Assembly (NCBI GenBank): GCA_010015805.1
Contig: ML978134.1
Coordinates: 558,001 to 622,000 of the forward strand
DNA length: 64,000 nt
Direction: 5' to 3'
DNA from: Rhizodiscina lignyota
Lineage: Eukaryota
Both the position numbers and the translations under genes were made by a program. The notes under the pieces are model-generated. The model made no database searches. It had not been told where the DNA came from and was given only the letters and a program-made list of their open reading frames with translations. Numbering within the stretch: the stretch's first letter is position 1; each line of letters opens with the position of its first letter. This document shows, in pieces, positions 1,749 through 64,000 of this stretch.

Positions 1749-3578
1749 ATGGCGAACCTTAACAACTCTTCTGCCAATACCGCCGCTCCCGCAACTCCAC
1801 CTCCTGGTGAGTGGAAGTTGCCCAACGAGGTATGTTTCGTCCAGCTCTAATTCGCTCCTTGCACACATTTCGCAATCAATGCGCTAACACTCGAGGCAGC
1901 TCACTCTCAAGATTGCGCTCTACAGCCAAGACCGCGAAATCTGCAACCTCGCAGCAGTCTCCAAGAAGACTAGCGAGGTCACTGCGGACAACAGCCATCT
2001 CTGGCGCATCATCTTCTGTCAGGAGTTCGACCTTCCTACCGACAAGGACCTTACAAGCAAGGAGATCAAGGAGCTGTATCAGAAGCGTCGCAAGTTCCTC
2101 CGTTCCGGCTGCTTCTGCTTCAAGGATGGCAACACCAAGGGCGAGACCAAGGCTCTTCGCTCATTGCTTGAGCTCATCATCGGTGAGTCCACAACTTGTC
2201 TGACTTGAGACCTTTGAACATTGTTGGCGCTGACTCTATTCACAGAGGCGTACCCTAGCTGGTTCTCTGAGGCTCATGGCCACCTCGTCTCCCTCAACGT
2301 CGCCAAGGTGAACATCTTCGCCTATGAGCACAACCTTCTCGCCAACGTCAACCGCCACTTCCGCGGCAACAAGAACCCGCAGCTCATCGCCCTCCAGCTC
2401 GTCCTTCCGCACCTCAATCTTGGCCTTGAACTCGGTGGCATTGCCCTGAATCCGACCTTCGGCTTCCACGATTCGCAGAAGGCTGTCTACGAGACCGCGC
2501 TGAGCAAGCTAATCTTCCAGAATGGCTGGAACAACATCGACGTCGAGTGGGTGATGCACTGCACGAACTTCTTCAAGTATCACTTGACTTCACCCGATGC
2601 GCAGACTGCCTTCCAGGCGTTCGCGGAGATACCGGATGAGTTCCACATCAAGGCACTTGAGGGTGGCCTTCACAACGAAGGACATGCGCTGGGAAACAAG
2701 TGGATGGGAACTTTCGGTATGCTTGATTCCCAAATTTCCTGAAAACAATCATGTTACACTTACTCTTTCCAGCCTACCTTGACCAGAACGAGCTCGGTGC
2801 TCTCCGCAGGGCTCGCGCCAACGACAATCTCGACATCTTCCAGGACAAGCACATCGACGAGAGCAAGTTCCAGATGCTGAACATGGAGTTTCCGACTGGC
2901 GACATGACGTCTGAGTGGCCGAGCTACTTCGAGGACTCCCTTCACTCCCTCGCCCCTTTGCACGAACCAAGAACCAGGGCACAGCGCCGTTCCCCGTCTC
3001 CCAGCAAGAAGGCCTTCTACTTCGAGGCTGATGGCATCGATGAGGACGAGTGAGTATAATCCTACTCAAACTCTCACATCTCTGTTCGACTGAGACTGAC
3101 TTGTGTAGCAGGCCTTTCCGCAGCAAGGGCTGGCTCAACCCTCTTCCGTCCCAGTACGGAATTCCAGGCTGGCAGCGCATGACCATGATGAAGTACTTCG
3201 AGGAACCCGACGGCAGCCCTGCCATGGACTCTCTATGGGCCTACGAGGGCGTGGTCATCCCCGGCGGCAAGGTGATCGTTGGTCGCTGGTGGTCTGTGTC
3301 GGGTCTTCCAATCAATGTAAGCTCTCTTCCACCCCATGCATCTTCTGCAGCTGACACCATCGCAGCAGAACCAGTACTGCGGTCCCTTCATCCTCTGGGC
3401 CATCCCGCGCGACGACGACTTCGACCTCCTTGGCTACGTCGCCGACCAGACCGACGGCCTGCCAATGATGGACGGCGCCGCTGACGAGCCCGACGCTTAC
3501 GAGCTCGACACTGACGAGGATTATGTCCAGACACCCAGGACTATCGAGATCAAGACCCCCACTACCCCCTTTTTCTAA
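1749..3578 (+). CDS. Multi-exon F-box-like domain protein
   Basis: ATG 1749. The spliced N-terminus reads WKLPNE|LTLKIALYSQDREICNLAAVSK...LWRIIF (F-box-like). Later exons include GWLNPLPSQYGIPGWQRMTMMKY and WAYEGVVIPGGKVIVGRWW...GPFILW. About 5 GT-AG introns; stop at 3578. Confidence 0.65.
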
Positions 3579-3820: not shown

Positions 3821-4425
3821 CACTCTCATTAATATATGATAAAGTCAATGGACTTGTCACCTATGCAATTCTCATACACACTGGCCAAACTATATTAAAT
3901 TAAACCTCCACCGATGCACAAACTTTGGTCCCACAGCAAAACTCGACGAGATATCGTACGCTCCACTCCATCCGCCCTAATAAGCCTCGACGAGATCGAC
4001 AATGTTGTCACACAGCTGTGGTACACAAGACTTCCAAGATACACAGTCTCACTAGTTAATATAAAGAACCTTCATTGCAGCCGCACAATCTCCACAAACA
4101 TTAGCTAAGCTGTATTATATGAACCCTTCATTGATGCTCTAATCTCTGCTGAAGAGCGAGGCTCGATTTATCTATACGCTTTTGATAAAGCCGGGCTTGG
4201 TCAGCTTTGAGGAGGTGGAGAATGCTGCGCTTTAGCTTCGGCGCACAGAACTGCTAAGATACGCAGTCTCATTAACCAATATAGAGTATGTTCACTGTAG
4301 CTGCACAATCTTCATAAACATTGGCCAAGCTATATTATATCACCCCTTTCATTGATGCTATAACTCCCGTTGAAGAGCGAAACTTGATTTGTTTATCCGC
4401 TCTTGACAGAATCGGGCTCGGCCTT
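3821..4425. repeat. Three diverged direct repeats with a period of about 220 bp
   Basis: Units start near 3821, 4044 and 4264. Shared blocks include cagtctca, gcacaatct, cattRgcYaagctRtattatat, ttcattgatgct and gaagagcga. The first copy is the most diverged. Confidence 0.7.
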
Positions 4426-5373
4426 CATTGAGTCAACTCTTCTCATCTTCTATATCTGATAGAGTACAAGGGTGTCGGAGTTGTACAGTTTCTCAACACA
4501 GAGCCAATTGCTTTATTTCGAACCTTTGACTACTTCTGAATACTACTACGTCCCTAACAGTTTCTTTGAAGGAGGGTGACAAGGTAGATCCGTAAGCGTC
4601 TAGCAATGGCCTCTGCTCTCCTGGAGAACGAATTTGAGAAGATAGTACGAGCTTTAGAGCATGGCGTTCCGTTTCTAGAAGAATGAGATCCGAAATATAC
4701 AACGAGCTGTCGAGCATGGTGATGCCTCGCAGGAGAGAGAGCTTTGCAACACGAAGGAGCTGGTTTCTCATGAGCGTGTGAAGCCGGTAATAGCGTCTCT
4801 TTTCTGTGATAACGAGAAGAAAATCTTCTAAGGCAGGCCTGGCAAGCTACTCCCTGATAACCTCGAATGTAGACTCACCAATATGCGGAAGCTTCTTGAA
4901 CGGGCTGAATGCGACTCTAATAGAGCGGCTCTGTAGACTCCTCGCTCGCGGGAAAGCAACTCCTTCGTATACTACAAGCTTTCGAGCTTGGCGTCTCTCT
5001 CTGTGATGAACTCGTCAACTCGCAGGCCAAGATGCCACAGAAGAGTACGATCCCGTCCATCCTCCAGGCACCCTCGAGTCGAATCTCAAAGCCTCCGCAA
5101 TATCTCGGTACAATAGACCCCAAGACACTTCCACAAGTTGAAAAGACGGAAGTCGAGACGGCCGAAGCCGAGGGTCTTCAGCTTACACCAAAGTTCCCGA
5201 ATTCGTAGGAGGTATAGACGTTCAATGATGGCCCACGTTTTTCGTGAAGGTATCGAATTTGCTGGTACTTCGTCGTGCCCTGGCACGTCTAATTATACAA
5301 CGCCCAGACTCCTTGCGAGACTTGCTTTTCCCACAACGTGCGCCCAAATGCATGCTTGATGTTACCCAGCACT

Positions 5374-6755: not shown

Positions 6756-8521
6756 ATGGCAGACGCTCTCTGTGGGCCGTCGAACCCGCTCCAAAACTTC
6801 CAGAAGCACTCGAACGTCGACCGAACGCTTCAGCAAGACCGATTAATTTCTCGCCATTCTCCCTCCCAAGTAAGCAGCTGCTCACCATGTAGACATATAA
6901 CCATGCACTAACATATACAGGGCTTTCGCTCCTCTCCTGGACCAGCAGCTGGCAGTCTCGATCCTGAGTTTGAAGCTTTCCAGGCCGGCATACCCACTGG
7001 CCCCGCGCCTCACGAGTTCCACCAATTCCCGCATCAACCTCTGCCTCTGCACGCCGCTGAGCCACTATCACAACCACCGGGATGGGCTGCAGATTTCCAG
7101 CGCCTTCACATCTCTCCACAATCCCACTCTCCTGCTCCTGTGCTCTCTCCTCAAGCACAAGCTCATAGACAAAGCCCCGCATCATGGCATCAAGACTTCC
7201 TCCGACAGCAACATACTCCCCCAACCTCTGCAACGCCACCGCAGATGCAGCAACATGCTCCCATGCGCTCGGCATTCTCCAGCATGCCAATGTACGGCAT
7301 GCACAACCCCTCCACATCATTCTATGAGCCGAGCTTTGACGAACGGCCTGCAATGACTGTTGCAGAGGGGAAGCAGAGAGAACAAGTGCAAGCAGAGGTT
7401 CAATGGGATGATGCAGCGTTTGAACGTGCGTTTGATGCTGTCCATCAGGAGACGATGTCGACCGAAGATGACTTTGCCGATGCATTTTCGGCAGACTTGC
7501 AGGAGATTGGTCAGCGGCTGGATGCACAGAATCTCGATACCAAAGAATCGCTGGAAGCGGATATCCAGAGATTCAAGGACCAAGTGCACGACGATCCTCT
7601 GGCAGATCAACATGACATTCTCGATGCCATAGAAGCCGAGGCTCTTGCGCGCCAGAGGTTTGAGGACGACCGGCTGCTGGAGGAAGAGAAGCAAGACATG
7701 CGACCACCGGATGCAGACGAGGACGAACTCAGTCGGACGGCCGGCCAGCTACTGGAGAGCGTATCCCACGAGACGAGCAAGAAATTCCAAGAGAGCAACT
7801 TCCTGGCACTGATGCGTCGCCTCCGGGACAGGGAGGTGCGCGTTGAGGGGGATAAGATGGTCGAAGTGCGTGATCCTTTTCTCACCAGTTCTGCCAACTT
7901 CATCCCATCTGCTACATCCACTCCGGTGTCTACCATCTCTACCGCTTCTTCTGTACCGATGTCTGTCACATCAAGCCGGACTTCGCTGTCAGTCGAGGAG
8001 GCAGTGAGAGAGGAGATGGCCTCGAGACCCATGTGGATAGATTGGGTCGATGCGGAGGGCCGGAGACATATACATCCAGCACCTGCTGCTGATGAGCAGT
8101 GCAGGCTGTATGGGTGCAGCATCACGGATGGGCATCTGCATGATACCCCCTTTGTCGACACGAATTCTGACTCGGACTTTTATTGATAGAATTGACTAAC
8201 GAATTTCCCCTAAGCTACCAGACCGACTCACTATCCATGATGAATGAGCCACTACTGCACGACCGCATCGATCCCATCCTCCAGGACTCCGATGACGGCC
8301 GCACGATTTATACCTCCTCGATGCCGCCGGAGTTCCTCCAAGAGCTACCGAAGTACCCCCTTAAAGATGAGTCCATGATGAGTGGCGCCATCAGCAGGAG
8401 TAACTCGAGTTCCGGCTTTGCAGACGGTGAGCGCACTCATGTTGTCCCTGGCCCGAGCGGAGCACGCGCAAGAGCGGGCTCGCTTGGAAGCAGTGTGTAT
8501 GCAGGGGTCAGGCCGTGGTAG
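6756..8521 (+). CDS. PEX20: PTS2 co-receptor peroxin Pex20 (3' end ambiguous)
   Basis: N-terminal MADALCGPSNPLQNFQKH (conserved Cys); intron about 6870-6920; WxxxF motifs (WAADF, WHQDF); C-terminal KFQESNFLALMRRLRDREVRVEGDKMVE. The last exon is uncertain (see findings). Confidence 0.85.
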
Positions 8522-9649
8522 CCTTGGACTCCTAGCTCATTGTATGTATCCCGACATAATAAGCTTCTACCATCATGAGCATGTTGCCAACGAAGTAGCC
8601 CAGTAGCACTGCTCCTATAACTTCCCTCTGAGCAACTTTCGCTGCGAGCAAAGGCTGACACCCGTTGCTCGCAGACATCGACATCGCCATTTCCGCTTCA
8701 GTCCGCTCGCAGATGGCCCGATACGAGCCACCGCAACGAAATACCACGATCAACGATACTTCGCGCCTGAACCTCTACCGTCTTCCCATCGAGTCATTCC
8801 CGAAACGAGACGACCATCCCGTGGCGCTTGAGAAATCCGTAGAGGATGAGGAGTGGGCAAGCTGACTAGCCGATTATAGTGACGCGAAGAGCGCGATTGA
8901 ATTTACTGCGGTCTCTGATCATGGATTAAGAGATAGCGCGCCGCCGGCGGGGGATGTTCCAAAAGGGATTGCGGAGTTGTCGTATGCGAAGGGTTGCTTT
9001 CTGTGGAGAGATGGGCAGCTTGTTTAGGAACAGCTGCGATCGAGGTCAAAAAGGTACCGGATTCACAAATCGAATGTACATATGAATAAATGGTGCTAAA
9101 GGGAGACTGGATGTACACAGAAAATACATACTCAAACCCTCGCTAGGCACCCGTGGAGAAGACTGCATGTGCACGGACTACGTAGCTTGCATTGATGTAT
9201 AACGATTGCGATTTACTTTTATACCTTCAGCGATTTCGATCTCTTCTATAGATATACGGCCGTCCTTGTACATAAGTTCGGCACCACGGGGAGTGGCTTC
9301 AATTTGAGAAGAGTATATCGGCCTCTCACTCTCTTCCAAATCCCTCTTCTTCAACAACTTCCGAGAGAGCTTTGCAAACGCCTCTCACTTCTCACCACAG
9401 CCTCTTCACTTAACCATCTGGCGTCAAACATAACCTGATGGCCTCAACAGTAACTCCAGATGATTCTTACATTCAAGGCTTGATACTCCGGAGCTAGACA
9501 CCTCGAGAATACGAACAGTCACGTCCACGATATTCTACATTATTCCTTTCAGGGTCGCCCAAATGCTACACAAACGCCGCCTATGCCAAGTCTATGCAAA
9601 ATGCAGGTCGAGTCGAGATGTCCTTCCCAGCCAGCCAAGGCGCTCGAGA

Positions 9650-10741
9650 TTAGAATAAATCATCTTCGTCAATGTCCATACCCCTTCGTCGAGCCAAATA
9701 TATTCTCCCACTCTCGTACACGCCTAAATACAGCCCGCTGCCTATCATTGTCCAGACGCCTCTCAGAGCGCCGCCTCTCCATAAGCCTTTGAAGCCCTGC
9801 TCCTGCACAATCTCCTTCCCAATGGCCCAGGAGGTCTTCCTCTTGCGCGGCTTTGCCTGTTTCGCAGCACGGCCCATAGCGTCGACGAGACCACTCGTCT
9901 CTCCTTGCTTTACCTTTTCAAGGACTGCTTTACCACTGGGAGCGCTCTTCTGGTCCGCGCCATGGTGACCATCAGCCGCAGCAAGCATGATCCGCGTCTT
10001 GACCACATCGATCGGCGTCGTCACCACCGCCGCGACACTCCCTGCCGTGCCAGCGCTCAGCGCAGTGATCAGACCGCTCTCGAGCAACGTCCCAGTCCTC
10101 TTCCCGCTCCGCTCGCGGTAGTCCTTGATGAGCAGCTTGAAGCGCTCGAACATCGGGAACTGCAGCGCGGTGAAGGGCAGGTTGCGTCCTGCGAGCGCGG
10201 CGTACCCGCGCCATAGGCCTAATGGGTTGGCGCGGAACTTGGCGAGCGTTTGGACCGTCGCGTTCGTGGCATTGCGCCGGTGTCCGTTGTCTACCATCTG
10301 AGCGTTCTGCTTGATGACCTCTGCGGGGGTCAGGATGGCGCAGGACACCAGTTCCGCAACTGCGGAGGCGGCGCTGTGAATGAATGGTTGTGGGAGCAAG
10401 GGCACGCCATGGTCCTTCCCGCCAGACCTCTCGCCCACGATGGGGTTCGCGTTGCTGAGGGAATATTTGACGCCCTCATATGTCGTGAAGAAGGCCCCGG
10501 ACGAAGGGAGCGTCGCAATGATCACGCTGCCAACGCCCTGGTATAGCCCGCGGAACAGCGCGGCGCGGTTGATCACCGCAGCGGCATTAGGTGTGGAGGA
10601 TGGAGAGGTGTACAGACGCGCATAGTTCGGGGACTGGAGGCGGGTCTTGAGGGTGTCGAGCGGGTAGACGAGCAGGTCGACAGTGAAGGCTGCGACGGCG
10701 CCGGCGATCCAGATGTCTGCGGAGGTGTTGTTGTGGGACAT
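9650..10741 (-). CDS. Mitochondrial carrier family protein, S-adenosylmethionine carrier (Sam5/Pet8)-like
   Basis: Three Px[DE]xx[KR] signatures (PLDTLKTRLQ, PAEVIKQNAQ, PIDVVKTRIM) plus GLYQG, GLWRG and GLWRG motifs. Intronless, 363 aa. Confidence 0.85.
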   Translation of the reverse strand: MSHNNTSADIWIAGAVAAFTVDLLVYPLDTLKTRLQSPNYARLYTSPSSTPNAAAVINRAALFRGLYQGVGSVIIATLPSSGAFFTTYEGVKYSLSNANPIVGERSGGKDHGVPLLPQPFIHSAASAVAELVSCAILTPAEVIKQNAQMVDNGHRRNATNATVQTLAKFRANPLGLWRGYAALAGRNLPFTALQFPMFERFKLLIKDYRERSGKRTGTLLESGLITALSAGTAGSVAAVVTTPIDVVKTRIMLAAADGHHGADQKSAPSGKAVLEKVKQGETSGLVDAMGRAAKQAKPRKRKTSWAIGKEIVQEQGFKGLWRGGALRGVWTMIGSGLYLGVYESGRIYLARRRGMDIDEDDLF

Positions 10742-40158: not shown

Positions 40159-40744
40159 AAATTGAAATATACTGTTACCTATTACACAGGAATTTGCTCA
40201 CCATGATGGCTATCCTCGTTTTTCAGCTTGTGAATGTGGGTCATAACCAACAGAAACCTCCCGTGACGAGAACGCGCCAATGCTTTCTAATGCAACAAAG
40301 CTAGTAAGGAGCTATAGGCATAGGTACTTTTGAATTAAAGACTACCCTTGTCCTTAATAGCTTTTGCGAACAGTCTCTGTCTACCATGCAATACTAACAT
40401 TCGCCTTGAGTGTTACGGAGGAGCGTCACTTTGAACAGCCTCGAAACCACCAGCCACAGCAGGCTACGAGAATACGTCTTCACTCGTAATAAATCACGTG
40501 GAATGGATCACTCAAAATCCCGGGCGAAGTAGATTTTGGTTGCCTGATGCGATTTGACGAGGTTGAAAACATGCGGTGAAAAACTCAGGCCTAGAATTGT
40601 GATTGATAGGCGCCACGTCGTCAAAGCTCAGCCTTCTGCACTGCCTTCATTTTCTCTGCCGCTCTGCAAGGCTGAACTCTACAATATTATTTCAACCGAA
40701 CGATCGCTCGCAGTGTGATACTCTCCTCGAATACGGTCCGAGTC

Positions 40745-43700
40745 ATGCGTCTTTTGCAATGCGTTAAGGCTGGCAAGTTTCAGCTGACCAGAGACTTTAT
40801 TCGTAACGATGAAATCCCGCCGTATGCGATCCTTTCTCACACTTGGACGGATGGAGAAGAGGTCACCTTTCAGGATCTAACCGAGGGCACTGGCAATGAC
40901 AAGGCTGGCTTTCAAAAGATTCGCTTTTGCGCAGAACAGGCTGAGCGCGACAATCTGCGATACTTTTGGGTTGACACTTGCTGCATCGACAAAACAAATA
41001 GTGTCGAGCTTCAAGAGGCTATAAATTCCATGTTCCGCTGTTACCAGAAAGCAGCTCGATGCTACGTCTATCTATCCGATGTCTCGACAGCGAAGCGGAA
41101 AGCAGGTAGTTTGTCGTCTGACCCGTCCGCCGAGTCTACGTGGGAATTGGCCTTGAAGGAGAGCAGATGGTTTACTCGCGGCTGGACCCTTCAAGAACTT
41201 CTTGCTCCTCTCTCTGTTGAATTCTTTTCTCGAGAGGGGAAGCGACTAGGTGATAAGAGAAGCCTGGAGCGGGAAATTAACGAGACAACGGGGATTTCTA
41301 TTTCAGCGCTTAAGGAAACTTGTTTGTCCGGGTTCAGTGTCCATGAGCGATTTAAGTGGGCAGAAAATCGAAGCACCACGCGCGATGAAGATCAGGCATA
41401 CTCGCTACTCGGCATATTTGGCATCCATATGTCGCTCATCTATGGTGAAGGAAAAGAGAGCGCGCTTAAGCGTCTTAGGGAGAAGATAGATAAACCGTCG
41501 AAAGGTACGCATCCAACCCACTACACAACGTCAGCGCTGATTAGCAACCCAGAACTCCACGACGCATTGCAGTGGCTATCGCCCGTGGACTTTGCTGCCG
41601 AGCAGTACGATATTATTAGTCGAAGACATGAACGTACCGGGCAATGGTTTCTCGACTCTACAAAATTCCAGAACTGGCTTCATGAAGGCGACAAGACGCT
41701 CTTTTGTCCGGGCATCCCAGGAGCTGGCAAGACAATAATGGCCGCTACTGCTATTGACCATATCTCGGCACTACCTGATAAGGTGGGATTGGCCCACATA
41801 TATTGCCGGTATAAAACGCAAGCCGATCAGAGCGTCTCGACCCTACTCGCCGCTCTCTTGAAGCAGCTAATACAGGGTAGACCGCAAACAGTGGCTGCGA
41901 CTACGCTCATCCAGCAGCATTTTGAACAGAGGAGACGGCCATCTCTTAACGAGTTGTTTGGAGCTCTGCAGTCTGTCTGTGCGGACTATCCGAAAGTGTA
42001 TATCGTCGTCGACGCATTGGACGAATGTGACGACAGACGTGGTGATCGGAGCACAATTGTCGATAAACTTGGTGACCTGCAGGCTGGAACAGACGTGCGA
42101 CTGTTAGTCACGTCTCGCTCGCTACCCGAGATTGACAACAAGTTTCAAGCGAGCCCTCGGCTGGAAGTCTACGCCAATAAGGAAGACGTGCGCCACTTTG
42201 TGGCGAGCCAGTTGTCACGTCTATCGAACCGCATCAAACGCGACGACGAGCTCAAGCGTGCTGTACAGAATAAGATTGTTGAAGCTGTCGATGGCATGTA
42301 CGTATTTTGGATTCTGCCTGCAGCGCGACCTTCTTGCTCACGAAACCCGTAGGTTCCTCCTCGCGCAACTCCATGTTGACTCGCTTCTTGATAAGTGGAC
42401 AAGACGCGAAGTGCTAACTATGCTGGACAAGCTATCGAAAAGATCAGCTGTCGGAGAGGCACTAGAAGAAGCCTATGGTGAGGCGATCAAACGGATCGAT
42501 GGGCAACGGTCTAGAGCTCGCTTGCTGGCGAAGCGCATTCTATCTTGGATAACGTATGCACGAAGACCGCTTACAACGACAGAGCTGTGTCACGCACTAG
42601 CTATCACACCAGGAGATAAGGCTCTGAATAACGACGACGTATATGACCCGGAAGATCTCATCTCCGTCTGTGCTGGGCTTGTCACTGTAGAGAGCAATAT
42701 CATCCGCCTTGTTCATTACACGACGCAGGAATATCTTGTCAGGGCATGTTTAGCATGGAACCAGGATGCTACGGAAGAGATAGCAGTAGCCTGTCTAACA
42801 TACTTGTCCTTTGACACATTCCAAAGCGGCAGCTGCACCAGCGACGAAAGCTTCCAATACAGGCTCACCGAGAATCCATTCTTCGACTACTCGGCGTCCT
42901 ACTGGAGTGAGCACGTACGACCGGTAGAGGACTTCCCTATTGTTTCCGATTTGGCACTAGTCTTCCTTTGCAATGAAGCATTAGTTGATTCTCACATTCA
43001 AGCTGCGTCGGTGTCACCGTTACGTTACAGACCCGAGAGTTTCAGTGAGGATTTACCAAGCCGAACAACTGGGATGCACCTTACGTCGAGTTATGGGCTA
43101 CTCTGTTTGACTGAGAGGCTCTTGAAAGGGGAGCAGGGACAGAGTGACGTCGAAATCGATGCAAAGGACTCGTACGGCTGCACGGCGCTGTGGAAGGCTG
43201 CATCGAACGGGCACGAGGCGATCGTTAAGCTGCTGCTAGACACTGGTAAGGTCGACGTCAATATAAAGGAGAGCTGGAGAGGCGACCGCACACCGCTATT
43301 AGAGGCTGTATCGAACGGGCACGAGGCGATTGTCAGGCTGCCGCTAGACACAGGCAAGGTCTATGTCAATACAAAGGACTCGAGTGGCCGGACGGCGCTG
43401 TGGGAGGCTGCATCGAACGGGCACGAGGAGATCGTCAGGCTGCTGCTAGACACAGGCAAGGTCGTTGTCGATATAAAGGACTGCTATAGCCAGACGCCGC
43501 TATGGAAGGCTGCATCGAACGGGCACGAGGCGATCGTCAGGATACTACTAGATACGGGCAAGGCCGACGTTAATATAAAGATGGACTGGGACGGCCGGAC
43601 GCCGCTATAGGAGGCTGCATCAGAGGGACATGAGGCGGTCGTTAGGCTACTACTAGACATAGACAAGGTCGACGTCGATGTAAAAAACCGGTTTGACCAG

Positions 43701-44081
43701 ACACCGCTATGGGTGGCTGCATCGAACGGGCACGAGGCGATCGTCAGGATACTACTAGATACGGGCAAGGCCGACGTTAATATAAAGATGGACTGGGACG
43801 GCCGGACGCCGCTATGGGAGGCTGCATCAGAGGGACACGAAGCAGTCGTTAAGCTACTACTAGACACAGGTAAGGTCGACGTCAATATAAAGGCCTACAG
43901 CTTGACGCCGTTGTCGGTAGCTGTATCGAATGGGCACGAGGCGATCGTAAGACTACTGCTGGATACGGGTAAAGTCGACGTCGATACGAAGGACCTGTAC
44001 GGCCAGACGCCGCTACGGGTGGCTACATCGAGGAGGTACGAGGCGATTGTTAAGCTGCTCGAAAATCGCGCCAGTGTATAG
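40745..44081 (+). CDS. NLR-type HET-NACHT-ankyrin protein with a premature stop in the ankyrin array
   Basis: HET domain (YAILSHTW, WVDTCCIDK, SRWFTRGWTLQELLAP); NACHT Walker A GIPGAGKT and Walker B IVVDALDEC; introns 41505-41552 and 42298-42352; about 8 highly similar ankyrin repeats; TAG at 43608-43610. Confidence 0.9.
43160..44060 (+). repeat. Highly conserved ankyrin-coding tandem repeats (about 102-108 bp units)
   Basis: Repeated ggctgcatcgaacgggcacgaggcgatcgt...ctagacacaggcaaggtcgac. Two near-identical blocks start at 43508 and 43715 (offset 207 bp). Confidence 0.9.
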
Positions 44082-53242: not shown

Positions 53243-54619
53243 GCGGAATATACCAAGAAAAGATTGACACCAGGCAAGTGATTGGACGAGCCTCTTGATC
53301 CCTGTGTGAAAGACTGGCAGTATCAATCCCACTCATTCGGTTATGACTAGCACAATACCCCTTTTTACGTTTCGGCTCCTTGTATGGCCATTTTCAGAAT
53401 GATATTACACATTGTACATATTTTGTGGCAGCAATCGCTCTCTGAGTCTTTGATACGATACAGAACCTAGTGTGAAAATCTTCGTTTCCAAGTAACTAGT
53501 TCCATGGTCCACACTCACTGACCATTACGTACTTTCGTGGACAGATGTTCGAACACGACCAATCTCCATATGCGTGGGACAGTCAACTGGGGGTGTGTGG
53601 CGTATCTGCATAACAGCTGTTACATAGCGATCGGTGTGACAGATGTAACGTCATACAGAAGTGGTCGCGTGAGCAATCTCCTGTTCCTAGCTGCAGACCT
53701 GCAGCGTGGGAGTGTGGGGAGCGGTGTGGGGGATGGGACGTAACGACAAAGAATAGGTATAAGACTTCAATACTAAATATGAAGGGCTGGAAAGCTTCTA
53801 TATACTCTTCATCGTGCTGGGAATCCATCTAGAAGAGTTCTGTTCCCCGAAGCGACTCCCTAGAACCATATACCAGACCTTAGAATTGTCGAGCACAAAC
53901 TATCAGCTTACTGTATCCGAGTTAGGTATCCGAGTTGGGTATTTTCATCCGTTTTGCTTGGGAGTACAGTCTCATCACAGGGAATGTCTCTCATCATAAT
54001 CACCAATACATGTCTAAACGGTAACTTCCAGCTCTTGAGACGCAATGTCGCTATTCAGTAACTTGCGTAAATATTTGGAGTAGTACTGGACCCTTAATTT
54101 GGACTGTCCGGAAGTCCCTTGGTCCCCCCTGCCGCAATAATGCGGCTCCTCCAAAGGCTAGCACGCTCGTCCACGGTGCGCTAGGACGAAGATCGTGATG
54201 CTACGAACTGAGGAGTATCGGGCCGATTGAGGAGACGTCGGAGTCAGCTATCGGGAAACAATGAGCTCGATACCATGAAAGAATTCAGGGAATTTCGAAT
54301 CTCCATGAAAAGGGTAAATGAAAAACTGGTATTGACTTGCGTGAATGAAATCCGAAGCTTAAACAGAAATCATTGTCGTAGACGATGTGATAAGATCGAC
54401 GTGAGAAACCCTGCATACATTTTTCTTAACCTTCTTTTAGCAAGGTACGGCTCTTCCATCCGAACTCACCCCTTCCTACGAATAAGGGCCGCCACTGAAG
54501 AGCCTATCAACTTACCCGTTTACTACCCCAGATTTTTGGATGGTAGAGCGGTGTGAAGACGAAGCTGCCGAGCTGACGTTCCCGGCTTCGTCATTGTCTT
54601 TGGAAACAGCCGGCCAACG

Positions 54620-54643
54620 AACGTGCAGCACTCGACCCACGTT
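54620..54643. promoter_or_regulatory. Pair of candidate Pho4/NUC-1-type CACGTT sites upstream of GDE1
   Basis: AACGTG at 54620-54625 and CACGTT at 54638-54643 in inverted orientation, about 260 bp upstream of the GDE1 ATG. Confidence 0.3.
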
Positions 54644-54897
54644 CCCGCATTTGGGCTTGCGCCCTCAAATATTTCTTCAGGAACAACGACCCTTCGAGAA
54701 CACAAAACAACACATGCAAATGGCGGCAAAGCAGGCCTCAATTCTGCTTCGATCCTCATTCTTCCGCCCGTCGCGTGTTCGCCTGCGGCCGCTGTGAGCG
54801 TGCTGTACTCGGCGCCCAAGTGGCGAGAGACGCAACCATCCTTATCGACCGATCACCTTGTCTTCTTGAATATCCTTGAGGAGGATTGTCCGACAAG

Positions 54898-57800
54898 ATG
54901 AAGTTCGGACACAATCTACCGCGTAATCAGGTACCCGAATGGGCAGCATCGTATATCAACTACAAGGGGCTCAAAAAATTGATCAAGGCCGCAGCGGAGT
55001 CTGTGAGAGAAGGAGAAGACCCGGATCTCGCAGGTATAGCAACCTCCAGCACGATGCCGAGCTGACACGCGAGCAATATCTGCTCTGGGCGTGTTGGACA
55101 TCTTCTCACTTCTGTCCAGAATTCTTCTTCACCCTCGACCGAAACCTTGAAGACGTCGATGGATTCTACAACAAGAAGTATGGTGATGCTTCTCGCAGAC
55201 TGCGGCTGCTCTACGATCGGTATGGCAAGGCCTTACCAGCGGATGGTATGGATCGGGACGAGGTGGAGGATCTCATGGGAGCTCTGCTTGAGCTTCGTGG
55301 ACAGCTGAGGAAGCTACAATGGTATGGGGAGGTGAACAGGAGGGGCTTCATCAAGATTACGAAGAAGCTGGACAAGAGAATTCCAGTTCAATCGAGCCAA
55401 CGGCAATACTTGGCGACCAAGGTGGACCCAAAGCCATTTGCTACCAATTTCAGATTGGCCCAGGACATGAGAGCAGTCAATGACTGGATGTCTGCTCTTG
55501 GAGAGGTCAAGACCTTTGACGATGTAGGATCGTCACGTTCTTCGGCTTCAATGAGGCATGTATCATCACGGGCGATCCTAAATTTACCCCCTGGCCTTTT
55601 AGATACTGTCGACCAGGCCATTCGGAATGACGATGCGGCTATAATCTCAGAAGTGCTACTTGAAGCAAATACGGACGAAGATTCGACCACTCCAGCTTTC
55701 CAGAAGTTGCTCCTGAATCTGCTACAGCGAGCTATATCTTGCAAGAGCAAGCTCTGCATTGAAACTCTTCTCAAACGAATTGTAAGCTTGGACGAGGAGG
55801 ATGATCTGAATAAGCGCAACTGCATCCACCGTCTTGTCATCTCAATTGGACGCACAAAGACTGCGGAACAACAGAGTCAGGAACCTTCACCAAGCAAGCC
55901 ATTCGACCCGCCAAACTTTATCACACCAGCAGAATCTCCAATGATGCTGCCACCTCCGTGGACGAGGCCGGAAGAAGAGGCAACCAATGTGCTTAGCAAA
56001 AAAGATGACTCTGTGAAGCTGTTGACGTTCCTCTTGGACAAACTTCAACCTTCACAGCGATCTGCACTCCAAGCTCGGGACTCGTACGGCCGGATACCCT
56101 TACATTATGCTGCCCATTACGGGTTTGTGTCCATTTGCGAAGAAGTTGTTAAGCATATGCAAGACTGGGGCCAATTTGATGTCAGCCACGGAATCGATTC
56201 TGCAGTATGGCAAGATAATGACGGCTTTGCACCACTGCATCTGAGTGTTGTCGGTGGCCACTATCTCACCACCAAAGCATTGCTCGAAGCTGAAAAGTGG
56301 CAAGGGCATGAACAGGCGAACCATGCCTTCAGGAGAAGTGAGGCAAAATCCGGCGCAGTCCTGGCAATAGCCACCAAATCGAACTACTATCCCATCGTTC
56401 AACTCCTCGTAGACGCTGGCGCTGACATAAATTACCAAGATGAACAAGGTGAGACGGCGCTGCATGTTGCTGCTCGCTTTGGACATGATAAATGCGCCGA
56501 AATTTTGATCCACGGCTCAGAAGAACAGAAGACAAACCTTGAGATTACCGAAAAGACCTTTGCATGGGCACCTTTGTTCATTGCTTGCGTAGACGGACAC
56601 CTTGGCGTGGTCAACTTGCTCATCGAAGCTGGCGCGGAATTGGGCAAGACGGATTCTTCTGGCTGGACACCAAGAGAACATGCTGCGCTCCGTGGCCACA
56701 TGGACATTGCCCGTCGCCTCACAGAAGTTCTCCCACCTCCACTACTCACAGCGCCAGATTCGTCTTCTGGCGTGTCAGGCTCGCCTCCCAACCCCCATTC
56801 TCTGGGGGAGCGGCGGTCTAACGTAAATATAAAGGAGAGCGGGAAAATGTCCCAGCCAGTCAAGACATTCGGACATCGCTATTTAAATAAGGAGAGTATG
56901 ATACTTCTCTCCCTCGGTACAATGGACATGCGAAAGAACGTGGATCCTGTCAAATTGGACGACATTCCTCTTGCGGACGCTCACGCCACTCAGCTGGATA
57001 CGGCGTTGTCTGTCGTCGTTTCTGCGAAAGGCGCCAATGGCGAATCAACCGTAATTGATCTCCCAGTGCAAGAAAACATCAGCACGGATCCTATCACGTT
57101 TACAGCAGAAGACCCTACCAAGGTGAAATTGCTCTTCGACATTGTTCCAACATATGCTGGCTCCAACGAACGGAGGGTCGGTCGTGGCGTTGCTTTACTT
57201 TCCAGCATCAAGCCGAGCATTGGTTCCAAGCGTATCACCCTCCAAAGCGATATCAGTGTCCCGATTGTTGCTGCCAATACCTTGGAGGTCATTGGATCGG
57301 TCAATTTCAACTTTCTCATCATCTCGCCTTTTTCTCACCCGAACATGTCAATTACTGAAGAGCGCACATACTGGAAGAGTATGGCATCGACAATGTTGAT
57401 TGGACACCGTGGCACTGGCAAGAACTTTCCGCCTGGCTCGTCCAAGTCCTTGCAACTGGGCGAAAACACCATCCAGTCGTTTATTACCGCAGCGAACCTG
57501 GGTGCATCCTACGTCGAGTTTGACGTACAGCTGACAAAAGACCTTGTCCCGGTCATCTACCACGACTTTCTTGTCAGCGAGACAGGAATTGATGCGCCTG
57601 TGCACACTTTGACTCTGGAGCAATTCCTTCATATTGGCGAGGGACAGACTCCACGTCCATCTAGACCTGGTTCCCCGATGACTTATCCAGAATCTGCAAC
57701 CTCCAAAGATTTGGCCAGTGGAAAGGACAGGGCTCGAAAGCCACGCTCCTACTCAATGACCTCGAACAAGGACGACCGCACTTCGGAGCTGGCAGAACGA

Positions 57801-58566
57801 ATGAAGCATACACGTGACTTCAAGAAGAAGGGTTTCAAGGGTAACGATGGCAACTTCATCCAGTCCCCATTCACAACCCTTGAGGAAATGTTCAAGAAGC
57901 TGCCAGAGTCGATCGGCTTCAACATCGAAATGAGTAAGCAGCCGATGTACTATGCTCAAGTGTACAAGGACTGACCTAGGTTTTATAGAGTATCCAATGC
58001 TTTTCGAGTCTGAAGATGAAGAGATGGATACTTATGCAGTCGAACTCAACTCGTTCGTCGATACAGTGCTGACGAAAGTCTACGACCTCGGCCGCAAGAG
58101 GAACATCATCTTCTCGTCATTCAACCCGGACATCTGTCTTCTTCTGTCCTTTAAGCAACCTTCTATCCCAATCCTGTTCCTTACAGATTCAGGCTGCTCC
58201 CCTATCGGTGACATCAGGGCCAGCAGCCTCCAGGAAGCAATTAGGTTTGCGAGCAAGTGGAATCTTCTTGGCATTGTGTCCGCCGCGGAACCACTAGTGA
58301 CATGTCCGAGACTCGTCAAGGTCGTGAAGGAGTCCGGCTTGGTGTGCGTCAGTTACGGCACGCTGAATAACGAGCCATACAATGTGAACGTGCAGGTCAA
58401 GGAGGGCATTGATGCTGTTATTGTGGACAGCGTGCTCAAGATCCGCAAAGGTCTCACGGAAGGAGATTCAAAGACTGCGCCAGGGCAAGCACAGACGCAA
58501 ATGAACGGAGCCACCAATGGCACTGTGAATGGGGCAAATGGGATACCTATTCCGACGAAGTCATGA
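54898..58566 (+). CDS. GDE1: Glycerophosphocholine phosphodiesterase (SPX-ankyrin-GDPD)
   Basis: MKFGHNLPRNQVPEWAASYINYKGLKKLIK (SPX), ankyrin repeats, then IGHRG, ENTIQSF, VEFDVQLTKD and FSSFNPDIC. Introns near 55.03-55.12 kb and 57.93-57.99 kb. Confidence 0.95.
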
Positions 58567-60037: not shown

Positions 60038-62729
60038 ATGGCGCCTCCCACTGAGCAGTCAATACCTGTCACCTATATCCGCGGCGGCACCTCCAACGCC
60101 CCATTCTTCTACGATCATGATTTACCTCCAGCAGGTCCTAAACGTGACCGCTTCTTGCAGCGGATCATGGGTTCTCCAGATCCGATGCAAATAGATGGCC
60201 TAGGTGGTACAAATATCGTGACATCCAAGATTGCCATTATCAGCAAATCAGACCGGCCGGGAGTGGATGTTGAGTACAACTTTGTGCAAGTTGGCATTGT
60301 CGACGACGTTGTCGCATACAACGCCAATTGCGGCAATATTTCATCTGGCGTGGGGCCCTTTGCGATCGACGAGGGCCTGCTCAAGGAGCAAAGAGAGGGT
60401 GTCAGAATTGACGAGAGCCTAGAAACGAAAGAGGTTAGAATTTGGAACACGAATACGCAGAAGCTGCTTGTTGAGCACGTTCCAATCAATCCTAAAACTG
60501 GTAAGGCGCTGGAGGCTGGAGACTTTGAGATTTCAGGGTGCCCTGGGACTGGAGCCCCAATTCTCTTGGACTATCGCAATGTTCGAGGACTCTACTCATT
60601 CTGCAAACATCACATGCTGATCCGAACAGGTCATTGGATCGCAGCTTGGTGGCTCTGCCCTCCCGACAGGAAATGCCACGGATCGCACAACCGTCGACGG
60701 GCTGGAAGTCGAGTACACCGTCTGCGATGTGGCTAATATCTGCGTCTTTGCTCGTGCTCAAGACTTGCAGATTCACGGTAATGAGGCATCGGCAGCACTC
60801 GATGAGAACAAGAAGCTCCTCGCCCGTATGAAGGAGCTCCGTGGCAAAGCTGCACAGAAGATTGGCATGTGCAAGGACTGGCGAGCGGTGGACGAGGAAT
60901 CGCCCATGGTTCCGTTTGTTGGACTAATCTCGCCTGCAACGAGGGAAGATTGCCATATACAGTCACGATTATTCCTGGATAACAAGTGCCATACTGCGAT
61001 GGCTGGCACAGGCGCAACTTGCACGGCTGCCGCCAGCAAGATACGAGGAAGCATCGTCAATCAAATTGCGAGACCGCAGTCCAAGAGTGAGACTGAGTTC
61101 AGGATCCAGCATCCATCTGGTTACATACCGGTTGTGGTCAAGGTGAAGCCCGGCACAGAAGACCAACCAATACCAGACTTCGATACATTGTCCTTTATTC
61201 GAACTTCGCGTCGATTCTGGGACGGCCACCTGTATATCCCAGATGACGTCAAGTATTGCTTTGAAGAAACGAATGGCGCCTCGAGCAATAGTGCTACTAA
61301 TGGCCATGTCAACGGCGAGGTCAATGGGCATACCAATGGCACGATTGCGAACGGGCATGCGCCAGAAGATACCATTCCATTGACCACCAAGACTCTTGCA
61401 GAGTTCGTTGCGAACCTCAAGTACTCCGATATCTCCGAGGATGCTCTTTCACATCTTCGCCTGCTCCTCCTTGACTATATCGGCGTCGCCTCCGCCGGTG
61501 CCACCCTCGCCGAATCTACCAAACCCTTCCTCCGCGCCGTCGGACGCCTCGACACCGCCGGAGGGACAGCGACCGTTTTCGCCAACGATCAGAAGTGGGA
61601 CCCACGATACGCAGCCCTCCTCAACGCTGCGCAGTCTCATAGTCTCGACTGCGACGACACGCATATTGCCGCGGTCCTACATCCAGGCGCGCCGATCTTC
61701 TCTACAGCCTTGGCCGAAGCCGAGACGTCCCCTCTCAAGCCCTCCGTCGAGGAGTTTTGGGTGGCAGTGGCATCAGGCTACGAAGTTGCCGTCCGCCTCG
61801 GCCTCGCTATCGGCTTCGGTGGTCATGAAAAGGGGTTCCATACCACAGCCACCGCCGGGCTTTATGGCGCTATATGCGCTCTTTGCGTTCTCCGCAAGCA
61901 CGATGTTCAAAAGGTGGAGGATGCGTTTGGATTGGCAGTCAGCATGTGTGGAGGCACTCAGCAGTTCATGCAGAACGGATCGTGGAACAAGCGACTCCAT
62001 CCCGGGTTTGCGGCGCAGAGCGCCTTCACAGCAGTCGCGATGGCGGAGGAGGGTGTGATTGGAGCGGCGGAACCATTGGAGGGGAGATATGGACTTCTCA
62101 CCTGCTTTGGCGATGGCAAGGGTCATTGGACTATGAAGCCTTTGAAACAGCATTGGGAGCTGCTAGGGACGGCAGTAAAACCTTGGCCGGCGTGCCGCTT
62201 TGCGCACGGTCAGATCGAGCTCGCCGGGGAGATGGGTGAGAAGAGCCAAGGGAAGCGAGTGAAGAGTCTGACAGTCAAAATGGGACCAAGTCCATACCAA
62301 ATCATAGGAGAGCCTGTAGAACACAAACTTCGGCCGAAGAACATTGTCGAGGCGCAGTTCAGCAGCTACTACCAAACAGCCGTTGCTTGGCTGCGAGGCT
62401 CAAAGCTGGGCTGGAAGGTCTACGACTTGGTTGGCGACTCTGACGTCTTGGAATTTATAACGAAAATTACCATTGACGTCGACAAGTCGTATGACTTTCT
62501 GGAGACGGCTATTGATGTTGAGTATGAGGATGGCTCGAAGGAGAATCGCTTCCTAAAGGCGCCGAAGGGAGAGCAGGTCAACCCCGTGACATGGGAAGGG
62601 GAAAAGGAGAAGTTCATGGGTTTCGCTGAAGCCGTTTACGGAGAAAATAGGTGTAAGGAGATATGCGATGTAGTAGGCAAGTTGGAGCAGCATGGGATCA
62701 GCGAGCTCATGTCGCTGGTAAGAAAGTGA
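60038..62729 (+). CDS. PrpF (DUF453/aconitate isomerase-like) and MmgE/PrpD family fusion protein
   Basis: RGGTS, GSPDPMQIDGLGG..TSK and NCGNISSGVGPFA; intron 60581-60629 restores LPTGN; NG-rich linker; then LLDYIG, HSLDCDDTH..HPG, KRLHPG and KPWPACRFAH. Confidence 0.85.
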
Positions 62730-63098: not shown

Positions 63099-64000
63099 TC
63101 ACATGAAGTAACCGCCATTTGGTTTCTCAGCCAGTATAGGCTCTACACCTGGCTGGACCGAACCCCATGGCCCTTTTGTCAGCTCCCATTCATGATCTGT
63201 CAGCCCAAGGTGTGCCCACTTATTGTGTGCGGCCTCTTGATATTGTAAGTGTACGCAGTGGTCAGTGCAAGCCACATGGGCAGCTTCAAGAAATTGTCTG
63301 AACTTGTTTGCAATCCATTCTCCATGCATATGCTGTTCGAAGGCTGTGTACAGCTCGTCGAAGCCAGGACGAATGGTCAGAGCACCATGAAGCTGTCGCC
63401 AGCATCGTTCCATGCTTGCATCATATTTTTCCGGCACCATCGCTTGAGGCAGTTGAAAACAGAATAAATGGACAAGTGATAGGTCCCGAGCCGTCCACTG
63501 GTTCCTGAAGCTCAGGGCGAGGTGCAGAGAGAGGTATCGAACTATGTCCAAGAATAGCTCAGTTGCCTTCATAGAATAGTCGACTTGGAAAGTAATATCT
63601 GAGCCTTGCACGATTGAGAGCAGCCCATAAACCTTGTCTCGTGGATCACTGCATTTGTTAGCATGGAACTGGAGGAGAGCCGTGCGTAGTGGGCTCCTCG
63701 TGCGTGTCGTCGCATATGTGATCAGGTAGTTCACGTGCTTGGGTAAAGGAATTGTCCCAAATGTCCACCGGCGTATTAAGTCAAGATATTCCCAAGGCAT
63801 ATGTATATCGCCGCCATAAACAACAATCTTTGCCGCCAAGAGCAGCTCTTGAACAATCCATAAACGTTCCCAGTAGTCGATGGCAAAGAAACGCTGGACC
63901 GCCGGTTGTATATTGCTCCAGTCGGAAGGGCTCTCGAGTGATCCATACATGCCAGACGGATTATAGGTACCTCGAGAGTGTTTCACCAGATACCGCATGG
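63099..64000 (-). CDS. HET-domain (het-6-like) protein, 3' part
   Basis: YWERLWIVQELLLA, CSDPRDKVYGLLSI and VDYS motifs. Truncated by the window end. Confidence 0.8.
   Translation of the reverse strand, partial: MRYLVKHSRGTYNPSGMYGSLESPSDWSNIQPAVQRFFAIDYWERLWIVQELLLAAKIVVYGGDIHMPWEYLDLIRRWTFGTIPLPKHVNYLITYATTRTRSPLRTALLQFHANKCSDPRDKVYGLLSIVQGSDITFQVDYSMKATELFLDIVRYLSLHLALSFRNQWTARDLSLVHLFCFQLPQAMVPEKYDASMERCWRQLHGALTIRPGFDELYTAFEQHMHGEWIANKFRQFLEAAHVACTDHCVHLQYQEAAHNKWAHLGLTDHEWELTKGPWGSVQPGVEPILAEKPNGGYFM

Follow-up and report, generated by a model that had tools for sequence, protein, structure and literature searches.

Gene structure and domain architecture

The 64,000-nucleotide stretch of DNA analyzed here, referred to as the window, spans positions 558,001 to 622,000 of the forward strand of contig ML978134.1 from the fungus Rhizodiscina lignyota (assembly GCA_010015805.1), and coordinates are counted from its first letter. 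On its forward strand lies a two-exon gene predicted to encode an 880-residue protein, in which a PrpF-family isomerase domain is joined to an MmgE/PrpD-family domain through an Asn/Gly-rich linker (Table 1). The gene model was assembled from the sequence and its stop-to-stop open reading frames (ORFs) and covers positions 60038-62729, with the start codon ATG at 60038 and the stop codon TGA at 62727-62729.

Table 1. Coordinates of the fusion gene, its domains and selected codons within the window
Feature	Position	Strand	Remarks
Exon 1	60038..60580	+	181 codons; start codon and N-terminal half of the PrpF-family isomerase domain; starts at the first in-frame ATG of the upstream ORF
Asn20 codon of RGGTSN	60095-60097	+	Within exon 1
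Codon of the predicted catalytic Lys64	60227-60229	+	Within exon 1
Cys98 codon of NCGN	60329-60331	+	Within exon 1
Intron	60581..60629	+	49 nucleotides, phase 0; GT..AG; ctgat branch-like motif; read from the sequence
Exon 2	60630..62729	+	699 codons and TGA; C-terminal half of the PrpF domain, linker and complete MmgE/PrpD part
C-terminal half of the PrpF-family domain	60651..61241	+	PF04303 positions 172-371, 107.7 bits
Asn/Gly-rich linker	61242..61379	+	About 46 residues; from the alignment of homologues, columns about 425-505
MmgE/PrpD N-terminal domain	61392..62120	+	PF03972, 190.6 bits; keeps the family His/Asp/His/His/Lys residues
His codon at the second-base (Tyr145) position of IDS epimerase	61824-61826	+	Tyr in at least 90% of relatives
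MmgE/PrpD C-terminal domain	62184..62675	+	PF19305, 81.2 bits

A preliminary description of this DNA had assigned the two parts of the protein to the PrpF and MmgE/PrpD families, and both assignments were supported by Pfam scores far above the gathering cut-offs. Exon 1 matched positions 3-164 of the 371 positions in the PrpF profile PF04303 with 191.3 bits, and a second match to the same profile lies in exon 2 (cut-off 27), as do the matches to both MmgE_PrpD_N and MmgE_PrpD_C (cut-off 32.1). Because exon 1 ends at profile position 164 and exon 2 resumes at position 172, splicing rebuilds one continuous PrpF domain. The splice junction (DYRN/VIGS) was in register with unspliced homologues in the alignment. 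The position of the intron also appears to be conserved, since it is at this junction that the gene calls of P0005 and P0007, two homologues, start. The unspliced reading of exon 1 runs into a stop at 60736, and a single stop-free ORF (60621-62729) covers the C-terminal half of the PrpF domain, the linker and the entire PrpD part. This one unbroken ORF spanning both families ruled out an annotation artefact. The earlier proposal that a 49-nucleotide intron connects PrpF to MmgE/PrpD with no stop in between was thus borne out by the ORFs and by the continuity of the Pfam profile. As far as the sequence goes, the locus is confirmed as encoding one PrpF-linker-MmgE/PrpD fusion protein, with splicing and a single transcript predicted on comparative evidence.

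The linker varied in both length and sequence among homologues. The AlphaFold model of one homologue (P0010), with a mean pLDDT of 82.8 and a pTM of 0.55, contained two folded domains with no fixed inter-domain arrangement, and residues 393-412, which are equivalent to the linker, had pLDDT values below 50. This predicted model is evidence neither for nor against docking of the two domains. At the C-terminus, the window protein ends in -VRK, and two other fusion homologues (P0020 and P0028) end in -ARL, which resembles the consensus of a peroxisomal PTS1 signal.

The N-terminal half belongs to the Mii clade of isomerases

The closest solved relative of the PrpF half is 3-methylitaconate isomerase (Mii) from Eubacterium barkeri (3G7K). 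Exon 1 scored 143.6 bits against Mii, 135.4 bits against LigU and 119.2 bits against PrpF from S. oneidensis, and the C-terminal half of the domain likewise matched Mii best (112.8 bits, followed by 49.8 bits for LigU and 44.4 bits for S. oneidensis PrpF). With a profile of 22 family members, Mii reached 370 bits and any other chain at most 258. Neither exon approached the cut-offs of the NCBIfam models for defined functions: TIGR02334, the PrpF equivalog with a cut-off of 440.55, gave 149.6 bits for exon 1 and 45.3 bits for exon 2, and NF033377, the GalD/LigU 4-oxalomesaconate tautomerase model with a cut-off of 440, gave 170.7 and 128.3 bits.

The NCGN motif with Cys98 and the RGGTSN motif, both pointed out in the preliminary description, are present. 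Lys64 and Cys98 align with the Lys/Cys pair of Mii and with the positions mutated in the LigU entries 6P3H and 6P3K. Their counterparts in S. oneidensis PrpF are the catalytic residues K73 and C107 (PMC5690661). In an alignment of 30 PrpF-like sequences, the window protein kept all 42 invariant columns and departed from the consensus at 13 of the 53 nearly invariant columns, compared with 7-20 in the other fusions. By its scores and residues, the PrpF half is a member of the Mii clade, and its chemistry can be predicted on good grounds as an allylic proton shift, with a methylenesuccinate or an aconitate as the scaffold. Mii itself is described as isomerizing methylitaconate as well as itaconate (PMC4720413), and PrpF as isomerizing methylaconitates (PMC5690661). 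The distance to Mii is nevertheless considerable, as the scores of the two window halves compare with 486 bits for a Firmicute orthologue. Another fungal PrpF-family isomerase is Adi1 from Ustilago maydis, which we compared by its description only: it is said to be closely related to Mii and acts in itaconate metabolism, but it is a stand-alone protein of 443 residues clustered with Tad1, transporters and a regulator, and is not fused to a PrpD-like domain (PMC4720413).

The C-terminal half represents an uncharacterized MmgE/PrpD clade

For the PrpD half, the best-scoring solved chain was the "IRG1" homologue from B. subtilis (7BRA), both with the single sequence (85.2 bits, against 72.4 bits for iminodisuccinate (IDS) epimerase and about 54 bits for cis-aconitate decarboxylase, CAD) and with a profile of 20 sequences (188.5, 183.9 and 162 bits, respectively). 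The B. subtilis protein was judged in PMC12290011 not to be a CAD. No chain of 2-methylcitrate dehydratase was found among the 10 PDB matches of the 20-sequence profile, even at E<=10, and the score of 45.5 bits against the PrpD equivalog of NCBIfam lay far below its cut-off of 950. By these comparisons, the PrpD half belongs to an uncharacterized clade whose nearest relatives are "IRG1" from B. subtilis, IDS epimerase and CAD, with genuine 2-methylcitrate dehydratases far away. About a fifth of prokaryotic species possess MmgE/PrpD homologues, the majority of which are uncharacterized (PMC12290011).

The six residues listed in PMC12290011 as shared within the family (H85, D88, H99, H150, K198 and K266 in IDS epimerase) were all identical in the alignment of the window protein with 2HP3; they are common to IDS epimerase (2HP0/2HP3) and the (S)-(R)-methylsuccinate isomerase Msi. 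The second base of these enzymes (Tyr145/Tyr148) is Tyr in at least 90% of the clade in a 20-row alignment, His in the window protein and Ile in mouse CAD. CAD (IRG1/ACOD1, and CadA from A. terreus) has the same MmgE/PrpD fold, and six of the eight active-site residues of hCAD are common to both proteins (D93, T97, H103, H159, K207 and K272). The remaining two differ, as H277 is replaced by a Cys that is invariant in the clade of the PrpD half and Y318 by Val. CAD from A. terreus, however, itself differs at four of the eight hCAD residues, and the hydroxyl groups of Tyr145 in the epimerase and Tyr318 in hCAD superpose (both PMC6789909). Active-site residues therefore do not separate decarboxylase, epimerase and dehydratase. 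Msi genes are described as always adjoining a gene for methylsuccinyl-CoA dehydrogenase (PMC12290011), whereas no such gene, and no acyl-CoA dehydrogenase match in general, was found among the scanned ORFs of the window.

The fusion is rare but recurrent in fungi

A collection of protein clusters at 90% identity was searched by scoring 8000 candidates, which gave 182 proteins at E<=1e-3, of which 120 were listed. PF04303 and PF03972 occurred together in 31 of the 120 listed clusters, with 39-54% identity to exon 2. The preliminary description had suggested such an architecture search as a measure of how common the fusion is, and the answer is rare but recurrent. Eight of the fusion clusters carry NCBI names, all of them "hypothetical" or "uncharacterized" fungal proteins, from Cladophialophora chaetospira, three Exophiala species, Rhinocladiella mackenziei, Cyphellophora europaea, Penicillium riverlandense and Fusarium zealandicum; the four species whose taxonomy was checked all belong to Chaetothyriales. 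In a set of 1.84 billion representatives at 50% identity, 14,824 proteins matched either half at E<=1e-3, and both halves were spanned by about seven of the best 150 representatives, plus two fragments. The fusion architecture is, by these counts, real and recurrent, rare and narrow in its distribution, and unnamed. Our literature search found no paper on a PrpF-MmgE/PrpD fusion or on a bacterial PrpF/PrpD gene pair; PMC6731263, PMC9804861 and PMC8471276 deal, in the excerpts available, with ordinary methylcitrate genes.

Two relatives illustrate departures from this architecture. One of them (P0004) is a gene call of 471 residues with a PrpD part 85% identical to that of the window protein and no PrpF domain. 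Its residues 1-11 match the N-terminus of the window protein (8 of 11 identical), whereas residues 11-471 correspond to the final portion of the linker followed by the PrpD part. It looks as if the whole PrpF domain had been lost in frame. The other is a stand-alone PrpF-like gene of the fusion clade (3956-5188, forward strand) on a fungal-type metagenome contig, L099. Its product carries a short Asn/Gly-containing C-terminal tail resembling the start of the fusion linker, and a short Aconitase_C-like (LeuD-like) ORF (2711-3193, reverse strand) is oriented divergently from this adjoining gene.

Phylogenetic relationship between fungal and bacterial halves

Trees for both halves were quick IQ-TREE reconstructions under LG+G4, and the only branch support is SH-aLRT. 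For PrpD, the tree of 121 rows comprised the window half, 21 fusion halves, 17 hand-picked stand-alone fungal proteins, 4 bacterial proteins and tblastn hits, limited to stop-free hits over more than 330 query residues and to at most two from any one locus. The fungal sequences all fell into one clade of 49 rows (support 99), within which fusion and stand-alone proteins were intermingled, requiring nine changes of the fusion label on the tree. Within a larger clade of 68 rows (99), the nearest bacterial clade to the fungal one consisted of 17 rows (97), eight with an adjacent PrpF-like gene, five with one nearby, three without and one derived from the protein-cluster search.

In the PrpF tree of 151 rows, the fusion halves together with three stand-alone or fragmentary rows formed a clade of 25 rows (99). 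This clade was placed inside an 88-row clade (100), which also contained every one of the 14 bacterial rows whose partner is of the close PrpD type, separate from a mainly Firmicute clade of 63 rows (100).

Bacteria encode the two enzymes as neighbors in a conserved gene module

Motif scans with both halves collected 80 genome loci and 79 metagenome loci, in which genes were counted by local tblastn at E<=1e-8. A PrpF-like gene was present in 74 of the 80 genome loci and 60 of the 79 metagenome loci, accompanied by a PrpD-like gene in 32 and 21, respectively. The two genes formed an adjacent pair on the same strand at 15 genome loci (nine with PrpF first, six with PrpD first) and at 12 metagenome loci (nine and three), and the stop and start codons overlapped by 4 nucleotides in several pairs. 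The only stop-free join among the 159 loci was found in Streptacidiphilus sp. (L080), where an 834-residue ORF (7998-10499, forward strand) encodes a fusion in reverse order, PrpD-like followed by PrpF-like. Its PrpD part lies on a long branch in a different subclade.

The gene pair was frequently accompanied by the same partners. Among the 74 genome loci with a PrpF-like gene, a LeuC-like gene was found at 45, a lyase gene of the PEP-mutase/isocitrate-lyase family at 33, both at 26, and both together with a PrpD-like gene at 13; the corresponding numbers for the 60 metagenome loci were 31, 23, 20 and 12. The usual order was regulator, lyase, LeuC-like, LeuD-like, PrpF-like and PrpD-like (L138, L153 and L015). 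Several of the partner hydratases scored as LeuC/LeuD above the NCBIfam subfamily cut-offs, and the partner lyase was PrpB-like, below the cut-off (265.8 bits against 354.4). Transporters (TctC, TctA or MFS) and regulators (GntR or LysR) were recurrent neighbors. Neither citrate synthase nor B12-binding genes were seen in clusters containing a PrpD-like gene; since many of the contigs are short, absences of this kind are weak evidence. The paired proteobacterial isomerase at L015 was nearest to Mii, with 329.6 bits compared with 233.1 for PrpF.

On the same Paraburkholderia fungorum contig (L015 and L071), two PrpF-like/PrpD-like pairs flank a single set of lyase, LeuC and LeuD genes plus a gene for an MFS transporter. 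Downstream lies a third PrpD-like gene. This arrangement suggests that several related substrates could be handled at one locus.

The trio of isomerase, LeuCD-type hydratase and PEP-mutase/isocitrate-lyase-family lyase that surrounds the bacterial relatives is also found in the Mii system. In E. barkeri, the partners of Mii in nicotinate fermentation are dimethylmaleate hydratase and dimethylmalate lyase. The PrpF-like protein of the Firmicute Sedimentibacter, with 486 bits to 3G7K, is a Mii orthologue, and its locus encodes a dehydrogenase, LeuC-like and LeuD-like proteins, a 619-residue B12-binding protein, the isomerase, a MutL-like protein and the lyase, which is the layout of the nicotinate-fermentation cluster in E. 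barkeri. In the clusters containing a PrpD-like gene, this gene sits beside the isomerase and there is no mutase. Compared with the Mii system, a PrpD-like enzyme, fused to the isomerase in fungi, is attached instead of a B12 mutase. The presence of the B12 mutase at the Firmicute locus and of the PrpD-like gene without a B12 gene elsewhere would fit the PrpD-like enzyme as an alternative supplier of the isomerase substrate.

Genes surrounding the fusion in the window

The immediate upstream neighbor of the fusion gene (54212-58566, forward strand) encodes a GDE1-like glycerophosphodiesterase with SPX, ankyrin, GDE1 C2 and GDPD domains, a housekeeping-type protein that is unrelated. Downstream, an ORF of 299 codons (63099-63998, reverse strand) runs off the end of the window and had no Pfam match at E<=1e-3. 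Further upstream, an NLR-like gene (40676-44081, forward strand) with HET, an NPHP3_N/NACHT-type NTPase and many ankyrin repeats extends across three adjoining ORFs. Pfam detected no B12-binding gene among the scanned ORFs of the window.

A candidate function for the fusion protein

Many bacteria encode the two domains as neighboring genes in a putative cluster for the breakdown of organic acids; the fused domains therefore probably catalyze successive reactions of itaconate- or aconitate-like acids. On comparison with the bacterial loci, the fungal gene can be called a "Rosetta-stone" fusion, uniting two enzymes that are kept side by side in a conserved, uncharacterized bacterial module. The enzymes that follow them in this module are a hydratase of the alkylmaleate type and a lyase of the methylisocitrate/dimethylmalate type. 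The reading we tentatively prefer, and on which we would not insist, is that the PrpD-like domain makes or epimerizes an itaconate-type acid, which the isomerase domain converts to a citraconate-type acid. The analysis shows the gene model, the identity of the domains, their conserved catalytic residues, the recurrence of the fusion and the adjacency and neighborhood in bacteria; the consecutive action, the order of the steps, the PrpD-like chemistry and the substrates are inferences.

According to this proposal, the 880-residue protein would be a bifunctional enzyme with a delta-isomerase of the Mii clade at its N-terminus and a cofactor-free enzyme of the MmgE/PrpD family at its C-terminus. 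The C-terminal domain would add or remove a proton at the carbon adjacent to a carboxylate group and supply a 2-methylenesuccinate (itaconate-type) acid, most likely by decarboxylation of an aconitate-type tricarboxylate or, alternatively, by epimerization of a chiral 3-substituted itaconate. The N-terminal domain would then turn this acid into a 2-methylmaleate (citraconate-type) acid by an allylic 1,3-proton shift involving Lys64 and Cys98. In bacteria, the same two enzymes would act as separate neighbors at the front of the module, where the LeuCD-like hydratase and the PrpB-like lyase would hydrate and cleave the product. A wider proposal is possible but doubtful: the fusion and the bacterial five-gene module (PrpB-like lyase, LeuC-like, LeuD-like, Mii-like and PrpD-like) may represent an undescribed pathway independent of coenzyme A (CoA), in which an aconitate-type or chiral alkylitaconate-type acid would be converted to a citraconate-type methylmaleate, followed by hydration and cleavage to pyruvate and a second acid.

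Several observations weigh against the preferred reading. The window protein has RGGTSN where at least 90% of the homologues have RGGTSK, and His at the nearly invariant Tyr position of the PrpD half. The replacement of H277 and Y318 also tells against it: as two of the eight hCAD residues differ and IDS epimerase is at least as close to the PrpD half as CAD, decarboxylation by this half is not established. The gene call of P0004, which lacks the PrpF domain, indicates that the PrpD-like domain can stand alone. Some of the LeuCD-type partners in bacteria are of the homoaconitase/IPMI type and could take tricarboxylates. The co-occurrence counts come from a biased sample because the loci were collected with motifs of both halves. 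Apart from the Aconitase_C-like ORF on L099, the four fungal-type metagenome contigs that were inspected lacked a partner hydratase or lyase beside the gene. The preliminary description had stated that no partner genes are adjacent to the fusion, which holds for the whole 64-kb window, as neither aconitase-, lyase- nor TctC-like partners were found anywhere in it by tblastn and Pfam. The close relationship of Adi1 to Mii, discussed below, points in the same direction.

Alternative explanations

Unlikely, yet the strongest of the alternatives, is a variant of the methylcitrate cycle, in which the PrpD-like domain would dehydrate a citrate analogue, such as another diastereomer of 2-methylcitrate or an alkylcitrate, to the "wrong" aconitate isomer, and the PrpF-like domain would isomerize it to the cis form for an aconitase-type hydratase and a methylisocitrate-lyase-type enzyme. 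The four families of the bacterial cluster (PrpD, PrpF, aconitase and PrpB) are those of the 2-methylcitrate cycle, tricarboxylate-transporter genes (TctC/TctA) are frequent nearby, and the lack of a citrate synthase gene in the clusters would fit an imported substrate. The isomerization of methylaconitate is known for PrpF (PMC5690661), and the lone fungal gene could feed the methylcitrate cycle of the fungus itself. PrpF and PrpD of the known cycle belong to the same two Pfam families as the window protein. However, neither half comes near its NCBIfam equivalog cut-off, Mii is a closer match to the PrpF half, and methylcitrate dehydratase was missing from the PDB matches of the PrpD half. 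Several partner hydratases are LeuC/LeuD above the NCBIfam cut-offs, that is, enzymes for alkylmaleates, which are dicarboxylates. In the known cycle, moreover, PrpD on the one hand and AcnD with PrpF on the other are alternatives and not partners (PMC5690661).

The preliminary description had proposed a bifunctional enzyme with an Adi1-like aconitate isomerase, converting trans- to cis-aconitate, and a cis-aconitate decarboxylase producing itaconate. A bifunctional enzyme for aconitate- or itaconate-type acids is still the most sensible kind of function and was retained here. The proposed flow from trans-aconitate to itaconate was not supported, and we regard it as improbable: the PrpF half falls in the Mii clade, H277 and Y318 of hCAD are changed, and the bacterial module needs a methylmaleate-type product. 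Both activities do occur in the two families (PMC4720413 and PMC6789909), and six of the eight hCAD residues are conserved; the two mismatches are not decisive against CAD, because the A. terreus enzyme itself differs at four of the eight. The clade of the PrpD half is, on the other hand, at least as close to IDS epimerase and to "IRG1" from B. subtilis as it is to CAD. The companions of the bacterial pair, a LeuCD-like hydratase and a PrpB-like lyase, would be unable to use itaconate without further isomerization, and this route is disfavored because the conserved hydratase and lyase, which need a methylmaleate-type product, would be left without a substrate. Genes of an itaconate cluster, which in the case of Adi1 comprises Tad1, Itp1, Mtt1 and Ria1, were not found near the fusion gene in the window, nor was a Tad1-type match among its scanned ORFs. 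What keeps a small probability for this route is Adi1, a Mii-like enzyme itself, which is described as closely related to Mii (PMC4720413).

We consider it very unlikely that the two domains do not act consecutively, either because two independent enzymes were joined neutrally or because one domain has lost its original activity in this species. The window protein alone has Asn in place of the RGGTSK Lys and His at the nearly invariant Tyr, and the PrpF-less gene call of P0004, the intermingling of fusion and stand-alone proteins with nine label changes on the PrpD tree, and the lack of a fixed arrangement between the well-folded domains in the P0010 model at a pTM of 0.55 could be read in the same way. 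In contrast, adjacent pairs recur in either order across many bacterial phyla, with stop and start codons that overlap and with an independent fusion in reverse order, and the PrpF and PrpD subclades appear congruent with each other. The PrpF domain also retains all of its 42 invariant columns, and the PrpD half the six family-wide MmgE/PrpD residues. A fourth candidate, an oxalomesaconate tautomerase with hydratase as in the gallate pathway, was rejected, as the PrpF half is nearer to Mii and an RraA-like aldolase gene was found in one cluster only (L007).

Implications

The two families and the kind of chemistry are known, whereas the literature we searched contains no description of the fusion architecture, of the orphan PrpD-like clade or of its conserved partnership with an isomerase of the Mii type. 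The fusion, the conserved adjacency in bacteria and the accompanying hydratase and lyase together narrow an unannotated MmgE/PrpD clade to a short list of testable reactions. If the CoA-independent pathway holds true, it would provide the first function for this orphan clade and a natural one-protein route in fungi to citraconate or alkyl-methylmaleates. Should the product be of the citraconate type, the fusion protein would be a compact biocatalyst for itaconate isomers, which are of interest as polymer building blocks and immunometabolites, and it would uncover a new way for fungi and bacteria of the soil to consume tricarboxylic and alkylitaconic acids of plant or fungal origin.

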